Source: Octopus sinensis
Taxonomy: Eukaryota
Length of the DNA stretch: 64,000 nucleotides
Assembly (NCBI RefSeq): GCF_006345805.1
Contig: NC_042998.1
Location: 207,390,001 to 207,454,000, forward strand
Direction of reading: 5' to 3'
The translations under genes were made by a program, and so were the position numbers. The notes below the pieces were generated by a model, which was given only the letters and a program-made list of their open reading frames with translations, was not told the origin of the DNA and ran no database searches. Shown piece by piece: positions 46,301 to 49,300 of the stretch (position 1 is its first letter; every line of letters begins with the position of its first letter).

Positions 46301-49300
46301 CAATGGCCCAGTGGTTAGGACAGCGCACTCACGGTCATAGGATCGCAGTTTCGATTCCCAGACCGGGCGTTGTGAGTGTTTATTGAGCGAAAACACCTAA
46401 AAGTTCCACGAGGCTCCGGCAGGGGATGGTGATCCCTGCTGTACTCTTTCACCACAACTTTCTCTCACTCTTACTTCCTGTTGTACCTGTATTTCAAGGG
46501 GCCGGCCTTGTCACTCTCTGTGTCACGCTGAATATCCCCGAGAACTACGTTAAGGGTGCACGTGTCTGTGGAGTGCTCAGCCACTTACACGTTAATTTCA
46601 CGAGCAGGCTGTTCCGTTGATTCGGATCAACCGGAACCCTCATCGTCGTAACCGACGGAGTGCTTCCATCCCATCCAGATTTAAGAGATGAGGAATTATT
46701 TACATTTGACGGATATTTGTCCTCATCTTGTTTGTTGTTAACACAACATTTCAGCTGATATACTCTCCAGCCTTCATCAGGTGTCTTGGGGAAATTTAGA
46801 ACCTGGGTTCTCATTCCCAAGGTATTTTTCGATGTTGTTATTATTATTATTCAGGTCATTGCCTGGAATCGAACTCGGAATCTTGGGGTTAGTAGCCCGC
46901 GTTCTTAACCACTACGGGCATATGGCGTAGTGGTTAAGAGCGCGGGCTACTAACCCCAAGATTACGAGTTCGATTCCAGGCAGTGACCTGAATAATAATA
47001 ATATCAAAAAATACCTTAGGAATGAGAACCCAGGTTCTAAATTTCCCCAAGACACCTGATGAAGGCTGGAGAGTATATTAGCCGAAATGCTGTGTTAACA
47101 ACAAACAAGATGAGGACAAATATCCGTCAAATGTAAATAGTGGCTGTGTGGTAAGTAGCTTGCTTACGAACCGCATGGTTCCGGGTTCAGTCCCACTGCA
47201 TGGCACCTTGGGCAAGTGTCTTCTACTATCGCCTCGGAAACTGAAAGAAACCCGTCGTGTGTCCTTGTCCTGACTGCTCGTGATAGTTGTAAACGAATGC
47301 CACCGTCGTGCCAGCGGTGTCCGTTTCCTGGCTTCTGTGATCACATGTATGGCCATGGGAAAATATTACCTGGCTTGCGAACGGGTGAGGGTAGCCGATA
47401 GGAAGGGCATCCGATTGTAGAAAATTCGCATCATTAAATTCTGTCTGACTAATGCAAGCATGGAAAAACAGACGTTAAAACTATGATGACGATATTAAAT
47501 AAAAATGAATAGTTTTGATAGAATTGAAGAAACATTTGTGGAATACGAGTTGGTTCCTTTTTGCTGGATCCTGATGTATGCAATCTGATATAAAGAGGGA
47601 TACTTAACCCATAAGTAAGGCTGTACTCAACAAGAGTCTCTCCCTAAATGTTGAATAAACCTCGGATAATAATTCTGTCAGGGATGTTCCGTAACCCAGA
47701 GAATTCAAAATCTGAAGAAAAAAAAAAGAACAATTTAAGGATTTCTTTATTACCCACAAGGGGCTAACGTAGAGGGGGACAATACATCATGATTTGGGGT
47801 CACGAGAAACGGATGAAATTTACATAAAAATGATCTTTAAGAATTTTACATAAAATCGAAAACAAAATCGAGGAAATCGAATGAAACACAAATTTTTAAA
47901 TTTTTAATTTTTTTTTTACAGCACAACAAAAATGACACATGAAGTGGGAACACCAGAATTGCCGACCCCACGAGCCCTGTTTTCCCCACTGAAACTCGGC
48001 AGCCAACTCATAGCGAGCTCATGTGGCCACTTTCACTCGCAGCAATCGTGCCACACGTTTCCATCTTTTCTCAACTTAGACAGACACCTTTTCTCTATCT
48101 CCAAAAAAAACAATTTAAGGATTCTTTATTACCCACAAGGGGCTAACGTAGAGGGGGACAATACATCATGATTTGGGGTCACGAGAAACGGATGAAATTT
48201 ACATAAAAATGATCTTTAAGAATTTTACATAAAATCGAAAACAAAATCGAGGAAATCGAATGAAACACAAATTTTTAAATTTTTAATTTTTTTTTTTACA
48301 GCACAACAAAAATGACACATGAAGTGGGAACACCAGGATTGCCGACCCCACGAGCCCTGTTTTCCCCACTGAAACTCGGCAGCCAACTCATAGCGAGCTC
48401 ATGTGGCCACTTTCACTCGCAGCAATCGTGCCACACGTTTCCATCTTTTCTCAAACTTAGACAGACACCTTTTCTCTATCTCCAAAAAAAGAACAATTTA
48501 AGGATGAGGAAATTAAAACAAAAAAAAAAGGCTCATAAAACCCACAATTGTGGTGGAGGCAGAAATGGTCTAATGCAGTGGTTCTCAAACCGGGGTGCAC
48601 ATGACCCTTGTGGGGTCCGTTTAGGATTTTGTTAAAGTTTGTCCCATAAATCGGTAATACTTCCACAATACACAAAATATTTTCATGTTTTCATACAATT
48701 TCTAAAACTATTTAATTATAAAAATACAATAGGCGCAGGAGTGGCTGTGTGGTAAGTAGCTTGTTTACCAGCCATATGGTTCCGGGTTCGGTCCCACTGC
48801 GTGGCACCTTGGGCAAGTGTCTTCTACTATAGCCTCGGGCCGACCAAAGCCCTGTGAGTGGATTTGGTAGACGGAAACTGAAAGAAGCCTGTCGTATATA
48901 TATATATATATATATATATATATATATATATATATATATATATATGTATATATATGTATATATGTGTGTGTGTGTGTGGTGTGTGTGTGTTGGTGTGTGT
49001 GTGTGTGTGTGTGTTGTGTGTGTGTGTGTGTGTGTGTTGTGTGTGTGTGGTGTGTGTGTGTCCCCCTAGCATTGCTTGACAACTGATGCTTGTGTGTTTA
49101 CGTCCCCGTCACTTAGCGGTTCGGCAAAAGAGACCGATAGAATAAGTACTGGGCTTACAAAAGAATAAGTCCCGGGATCGAGTTGCTCGATTAAAGGCGG
49201 TGCTCCAGCATGGCCGCAGTCAAATGACTGAAACAAGTAAAAGAGTAATGGAATGTAAATCAAATGGCTATGGAAGTCCAATAAGGGGGAAACAGGGATC

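Follow-up and report, generated by a model that had tools for sequence, protein, structure and literature searches.

Head-to-head copies of a Penelope terminal repeat with a tRNA-derived head and a hammerhead motif in the Octopus sinensis genome

Introduction

A repeat-rich stretch of 64,000 nt of the Octopus sinensis genome (assembly GCF_006345805.1, contig NC_042998.1, positions 207,390,001 to 207,454,000; hereafter the window) contains a short inverted repeat, in each arm of which a tRNA-like piece is followed by a hammerhead ribozyme motif. In a preliminary description made from the letters of the window, the repeat was taken for a self-cleaving retroposon under RNA polymerase III (Pol III) control, non-autonomous, mobilised by a Penelope partner and possibly giving rise to small circular RNAs. 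Pol III promoters of this type are usually found in non-coding parasites such as SINEs. The locus therefore raises the question of whether the cassette is an element of its own or part of a larger one, and what role its tRNA-like head plays.

Results

The palindrome and its relatives in the window

BLAST of both arms against the window delimited an inverted pair at 46677-47139 with arms 93% alike, and all parts of the described cassette (A box, B box, (AAT)n, hammerhead motif) were located within it (Table 1). The palindrome is composed of two decayed head-to-head copies of the terminal repeat (pLTR) of a Penelope element. By BLAST the unit was present at every place named beforehand (9772-10069, 29551, 34139, 46677 and 59770) and, in addition, at 13859. 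No target duplication was found for the 46273-47139 insertion, the right end of which adjoins a SINE.

Table 1. Features of the palindrome and of other Penelope copies in the window (head positions are numbered from +1, the first base of the tRNA-derived head)
Position	Strand	Feature	Remark
9772..10083	+	Single head-to-short-end copy	Insert splits (AAT)n tract; 12-nt target duplication
13351..13959	-	5'-truncated Penelope copy	Head from 13383, separated by a 29-nt spacer from the stop (13415-13413) of the GIY-YIG coding end
13859-13959	+	Inverted hammerhead-to-tail arm of the 13351-13959 copy	
29551..30016	.	Head-to-head pair with one short and one long end	13-nt target duplication
34139..34400	.	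Head-to-head pair without tRNA head	13-nt target duplication
46273..46292	-	Far end of left arm (long tail, out to ~46273), severed by later insertion	Matches long 3' end of other copies
46293..46676	+	Nested unrelated tRNA-headed SINE, not part of the element	11-nt target duplication 46282-46292 / 46677-46687
46677..46916	-	Left arm: pLTR copy, head position +11 to tail	A box truncated
46740..46786	-	Left minimal type I hammerhead motif	Core kept, stem III palindrome decayed
46865..46874	-	Left-arm B box	
46914..46916	.	5'-to-5' junction	3-nt microhomology, head -2..+1 with +11..+13; direct sequence reading
46914..47139	+	Right arm: pLTR copy, head position -2 to short 3' end	
46916..46990	+	tRNA-derived head, right arm	Acceptor and T stems decayed
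46923-46933	+	Right-arm A box	
46968-46977	+	Right-arm B box	
46991..47002	+	(AAT)n tract, right arm	Length varies from copy to copy
47022..47139	+	First codons of Penelope ORF, hammerhead inside; ATG at 47022	Majority 835-aa ORF begins at the same ATG
47051..47096	+	Right hammerhead motif	C replaces the U preceding the cleavage site; inactivity predicted
59770..60279	.	Head-to-head pair without tRNA head	Another SINE nested at ~59908-60140

Several other features of the window were recorded. The SINE at 47140-47237, which adjoins the short 3' end of the right arm, is very common (about 15 other places in the window), and the same adjacency was seen at locus L279. The SINE family nested at 46293-46676 has further copies at 12129-12510, 50685-51068 and 59119-59497, which are 91-95% alike and near full length, and a member of it adjoins a Penelope copy at L276. 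A 152-aa open frame at 26674-27129 (minus strand) gave a weak match to Pfam AXH (Ataxin-1/HBP1; E 4e-4, under the curated cut-off), and is possibly a host exon or pseudo-exon. A tRNA-Arg(CCT)-like gene or pseudogene lies at 54048-54120 on the minus strand (ARAGORN and Rfam, 44 bits), and tandem repeats occupy 47722-48505 (380-nt period), 28094-28419 (30-32 nt) and 45216-45408 (16 nt).

The cassette belongs to a coding Penelope element

The unit is almost certainly a Penelope pLTR insertion. Sequence upstream of the head is common to several hammerhead-anchored loci and translates as the C-terminus of an endonuclease; the window has a copy of it at 13390-13860. Of 30 loci that contain the ORF end, 26 have head sequence immediately behind it according to BLAST; among the others, L104 and L114 retain only the first bases of the head on reading (27 loci being counted as head-carrying after this reading), and two have deletions. 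The pLTR begins 29 nt past the stop of an ORF for reverse transcriptase (RT) and GIY-YIG endonuclease, and holds the first ~51 codons of that same ORF. In order, the ORF stop and a further 29 nt are followed by the tRNA-like head, the (AAT)n tract, the ATG, the hammerhead and the tail. In longer copies, an inverted pLTR is followed by a tail that continues into the ORF without change of frame, then by RT, endonuclease and another pLTR. Full-length copies (L191-L194, L207, L209, L211) show tail or pLTR, ORF and pLTR, and the tail continues into the ORF in L203, L207, L209, L211 and others. The majority sequence of 45 segments (2928 nt) encodes an ORF of 835 aa with its start ATG inside the unit. 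As is typical of Penelope elements, the pLTRs stand in both direct and inverted arrangement and include the ORF start.

The single ORF carries an RT domain (Pfam RVT_1, E 9e-9), and its homologs at 52-68% carry PF00078. The GIY-YIG profile of Pfam itself gave no match to this Penelope family; nine loci of this genome with Pfam GIY-YIG hits served to build a profile that does match the C-terminus (E 2e-8). The 30 best Pfam GIY-YIG loci were rejected as members of the family, being other Penelope-like element (PLE) families or other genes with no pLTR sequence in common, and a PDB search returned distant RTs only. From domain order, length and motifs, the element was tentatively assigned to the EN+ Penelope/Poseidon-type clade.

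The 41-nt hammerhead core has 975 exact matches in the genome, far more than chance would give; a 31-nt word from the tail has 7038, a word from the B box 3086 and the ORF end 604, and each reversed control gave 0. With 20-29% of the copies matching exactly (20-25% for the tail), these counts correspond to roughly 30,000 arms that bear the tail and 13,000 that bear the head. Individual copies are ~3-8% different from the majority, no intact ORF was seen among those examined, and the family now has the look of an old and silent one. Another PLE family, younger and with open frames of 780-880 aa, was noticed at L037, L038, L047 and 16 related loci; the flanks examined gave no match to the hammerhead pattern used.

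Most copies that reach the tRNA-derived head begin there

The head is collinear end to end with genomic tRNAs (z up to 7.5). Arg(TCT), at z 7.5, was the best of 22 distinct sequences in a sample that lacks many isotypes, and stands for the closest tRNA of those sampled and not for a fixed parent. Neither the head nor the hammerhead was called by Rfam (gathering and E-value modes) or ARAGORN. It had been proposed that both boxes are kept while the cloverleaf stems have decayed, and this holds for the majority sequence; the left arm of the palindrome, however, lacks the start of the A box, and the pair at 34139-34400 has no tRNA head.

Three samples were pooled to determine where the copies end, and five duplicate arms were dropped. 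Among the resulting 50 distinct arms that reach +20, 38 end between -20 and +20, against 9-16% expected from truncation rates of 0.0023 per nt upstream and 0.0043 downstream; the other 12 run on into the ORF. Likewise, the genome counts drop from 3086 at the B box to 604 at the ORF end across ~75 nt, and among four full-length copies with a 5' pLTR extending to the head, three begin at it (L207, L211, L218) and L209 continues. The 5' starts at about -7 to -2 lie 9-14 nt before the A box, which is the usual start distance of Pol III. As the pLTR opens with a tRNA-like piece at which most copies reaching it begin, initiation by Pol III at the head is probable. The copies are thus Penelope ends, but the notion of passive truncated ends, considered in the preliminary description, agrees poorly with such clustering at the tRNA start, since the copies do not look randomly truncated.

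Pol III terminators and RNA reads

No T4 run is present in the 2928-nt majority sequence. For its ORF, 0 T4 runs were observed against 2.9-5.0 expected (P 0.025, 0.003 and 0.024 for the ORF null models); A5 runs are likewise scarce, here (P 0.01-0.06 for the ORF) as well as in the control family, making the T4 result a modest one. Another PLE family of this genome has 6 T4 runs in 1.8 kb. Among 80 related loci from other organisms, the 53 related ORF stretches of ~1 kb or more gave an observed/expected T4 ratio of 230/211 (1.09), and zero T4 was found for one of 41 related ORFs with two or more expected. A scan for A and B boxes was negative for all 40 relatives that have at least 250 nt of downstream sequence, and the same scan detects them in 13 of 30 copies of this Penelope family; several relatives have instead, as judged by eye, TATA-like words and T runs before the hammerhead. 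One relative family (L304-L306) is also free of T4 in the ORF, but its pLTRs are T-rich and without tRNA boxes. Relaxed ARAGORN on the relatives gave noise and was discarded. Inherited variants creating T4 numbered 0 at 54 sites against ~0.9 expected, a comparison without power. A protein search of the same genome for sister families returned this Penelope family at 30 of 30 loci, and hence provided no sister control within the genome.

Three raw RNA-seq runs of a related organism (~6% of each) were inspected. Read depth tracked copy number, with both directions equal, and was ~2-20 over the 5' half of the ORF; no pile-up of starts or ends was found in these runs at +1 or at the cleavage site. 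Because strandedness is uncheckable and short Pol III RNAs escape such libraries, these reads neither support nor strongly oppose transcription by Pol III. RNA editing was considered and dropped, as most A>G and T>C differences of the RNA are also present in DNA contigs. The palindrome junction at L092:1500-1506 is heavily represented (~300-380 reads per run, 82-87% agreement), likely as a single copy in an expressed host transcript.

The hammerhead motif and the question of circular RNA

The hammerhead matches the minimal PLE type: stem I has 5 bp, an additional A precedes stem II, and stem III is palindromic. It agrees with the minimal PLE hammerheads as given in the available text of PMC4209133 in being of type I with 5-bp stem I, in the extra base between 9 and 10.1, in the G-C first pair of stem II and in the palindromic 15.2-16.2, for which monomers are expected to be inactive. 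No difference in the motif itself was apparent. The proposal of a stem III formed by ACGU, with cleavage only as a dimer, thus agrees with the minimal type; neither arm of the 46677-47139 palindrome, however, keeps ACGU, in the right arm the U that precedes the cleavage site has been lost as well, and GUU is the triplet of the majority. In copies not selected on the hammerhead, core and stems are kept in 14 of 52 by a lenient pattern.

Retrozyme-like small circles had been suggested as a product. No pile-up of 5' ends was found at the cleavage site (three of 30 tail-anchored arms end within +177 to +196), no head-to-tail array was present in 120 loci of four samples or in another set of 30 loci, and no read ends at the cleavage site occurred in the ~6% examined of each of three standard RNA-seq runs of the related organism, libraries which small circles may escape. 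Circles of the retrozyme kind require two hammerheads on one strand; head-to-head arms lie on opposite strands, so that their hammerheads cannot pair in cis. The copies also span the site, and circular RNA is thus unsupported. The hammerhead would have been left uncut in those RNAs that were copied; for PAc, cleavage by the hammerhead is described as protein-assisted and dispensable for insertion (PMC11167929, as far as available).

Head-to-head pairs combine one long and one short end

Inverted pairs are real, but the earlier statement that the copies are mostly so arranged needs to be reduced to about half to two thirds, as an inverted piece stands just upstream in 13, 15, 19 and 20 of 30 loci in four samples. 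Both outer ends were visible for 45 distinct head-to-head insertions. A long and a short end are combined in 43 of them, two short ends in two, and two long ends in none; the two 3' ends lie ~30 nt apart, and in these 43 pairs the optional tail of 30-40 nt is present at one end only, as in Penelope elements. A flank word of 8-14 nt, taken as a target duplication, is common to both sides in 29 of the 45 insertions, against 42 of 1980 mismatched pairs.

Discussion

An alternative in line with the preliminary description would make the cassette a Pol III SINE or retrozyme in its own right, non-autonomous, with separate master copies, self-cleaving and giving small circles. Short head-start copies do exceed ORF-linked ones by ~4-5 to 1, a SINE with Pol III promoter and hammerhead does exist in schistosomes (PMC6765202, PMC2770079, available parts), and two CpG sites differ between the two groups of copies (P 0.008 and below 0.001). 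The CpG differences, however, may stem from the picking of samples; no diagnostic non-CpG variant among 24 variable sites parts 25 short from 60 ORF-linked copies, and the divergence of short and ORF-linked copies is similar (0.072 and 0.086). With their non-CpG variants in common, the short copies appear SINE-like in behaviour but form no family of their own in this sample. The head with A and B boxes is that of a tRNA-derived SINE, but it is also present in the autonomous partner and marks no separate lineage, and head-to-tail monomers each with a hammerhead, as in non-LTR retrozymes, were not found. The lack of arrays in the 120 sampled loci, the lack of ends at the cleavage site and the survival of core and stems in only 14 of 52 copies point in the same direction. 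Since the cassette follows the Penelope ORF and runs in frame into the next one, a separate retroposon is unlikely; mobilisation by the Penelope machinery is upheld.

Within the Penelope element, the tRNA-like piece might still be a passenger, such as an old SINE or tRNA fragment in the 3' UTR. Pol II would then produce the RNA, either by reading through tandem copies or by starting near a TATA-like word, and a hairpin at -16 to +10 would stop RT or make it fold back. Such a 9-bp hairpin is predicted in the ORF-linked RNA (-9.2 kcal/mol; -5.0 as cDNA), and 350 exact matches, some double-counted, were obtained for a perfect junction palindrome centred on its loop. Stalling at the foot of the hairpin would fit the shoulder of 5' ends between +2 and +17, the 12 of 50 arms continuing into the ORF are in line with this account, and a TATA-like word, though a weak one, is present ~34 nt upstream of +1. 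Either the hairpin or the TATA-like word could fix the 5' boundary with no part played by Pol III. Penelope promoters described in the available texts are TATA/Inr-like, as in rotifer Penelopes with similar palindromes at the pLTR 5' end (PMC3846280), or LINE-like, as in D. virilis Penelope, the internal promoter of which resembles TATA-less LINE promoters (PMC2377424). The hairpin is weak, however, and many arms were seen by eye to end at -8 to -1, beyond the point of hairpin opening, with unrelated flank and without inverted partner. Moreover, A and B boxes persist in the majority although the tRNA stems have decayed, and the ORF is without the T4 runs that its relatives have. We regard this account as the main rival but a less likely one, and prefer initiation by Pol III at the tRNA head. 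Retention of the palindromes for a host function, for instance as double-stranded RNA or editing substrates in introns, is highly improbable: the pLTR is abundant in RNA-seq in both directions, and RNA transcribed across 46677-47139 would form a long hairpin of the two similar arms, but the arms decay like neutral copies, later SINEs insert in them, the A>G and T>C differences are mostly those of the DNA contigs, and no clear host gene was found among 143 ORFs of the window.

The preferred start by Pol III at the head leads to a bolder proposal, which we put forward tentatively. A captured tRNA promoter could let Pol III make the whole 2.7-kb coding RNA from a coding strand purged of Pol III terminators, and the same promoter would yield pLTR-only RNAs, so that one element would be both coding master and its own SINE. 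Already under the preferred reading, Pol III transcripts of any copy would carry the protein-binding tail, so that short pLTR-only RNAs were likely copied in trans, in the manner of SINEs, without a separate family.

The palindromes and the hammerhead are standard features of Penelope elements; the tRNA module is the unusual part. Compared with the available descriptions of the closest PLEs of the Penelope/Poseidon clade, PAc of Anolis carolinensis (PMC11167929) and Pen2/Pen2a of Adineta vaga (PMC3846280), the pLTR here differs in opening with a tRNA-derived A/B-box module 29 nt past the stop and in having a sense strand without T4. Schistosoma Sm-alpha and Sj-alpha (PMC6765202, PMC2770079) are alike in the order of a tRNA-related Pol III promoter and a hammerhead, but are described as non-coding, often tandem and with an active canonical ribozyme, whereas the cassette here lies within a coding element and is found as single copies or head-to-head pairs. 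The non-LTR retrozymes of animals (PMC7229834; bioRxiv 10.64898/2026.07.22.740005) are likewise short, hammerhead-bearing and related to PLE pLTRs, but form head-to-tail arrays yielding circles, none of which were seen here; the words 'tRNA' and 'promoter' are absent from the preprint (bioRxiv 10.64898/2026.07.22.740005). The TRIMp3 elements Cassandra, Helenus and Ajax (PMC10886601, available part) also have a Pol III promoter derived from a small RNA within the terminal repeat; they are, however, non-autonomous LTR elements of <1.3 kb, the autonomous partners of which are expected in that paper to use Pol II, whereas here the module is within the repeat of the autonomous element itself. A literature search, mostly at the level of titles and abstracts, found no Penelope with a tRNA-derived promoter, and the octopus repeat annotation (PMC13282606) lists Penelope families with no detail of tRNA promoters in its available part.

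If the head drives transcription by Pol III, the usual split between coding retrotransposons of Pol II and SINEs of Pol III blurs, and promoter capture inside a pLTR would be one route to a Penelope-dependent SINE or an Sm-alpha-like element. For annotation, ~30,000 such arms would be misfiled as SINEs or tRNA pseudogenes.

The head-to-head pairs themselves are a known product of Penelope insertion. Inverted pLTRs, junction palindromes and a tail at one end have been described for Penelope elements (PMC3846280, PMC8557442, available parts), and PAc, according to the accessible text, cuts and extends both strands, its RT starting at two internal sites that bound the tail (PMC11167929). The pairing of long with short ends and the target duplications fit these two start sites and two-strand cleavage (PMC11167929). 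We infer a single event, in which two cDNAs, one primed for each start site, are joined at their 5' ends. The Penelope protein would make a staggered cut of ~8-14 nt, both cut strands would prime cDNA, each arm from a different internal start site on the RNA, and microhomology or fold-back would join the 5' ends of the two cDNAs, so that the resulting pair has one end long and the other short. This strict pattern is also a genomic readout of the Penelope insertion mechanism, testable in the existing in vitro system. For about one sixth of the arms (L061-L090, L259-L288), the end falls inside, or blends into, the (AAT)n tract or genomic runs of (AAT)n; this is in keeping with an ATT target preference like that of PAc.
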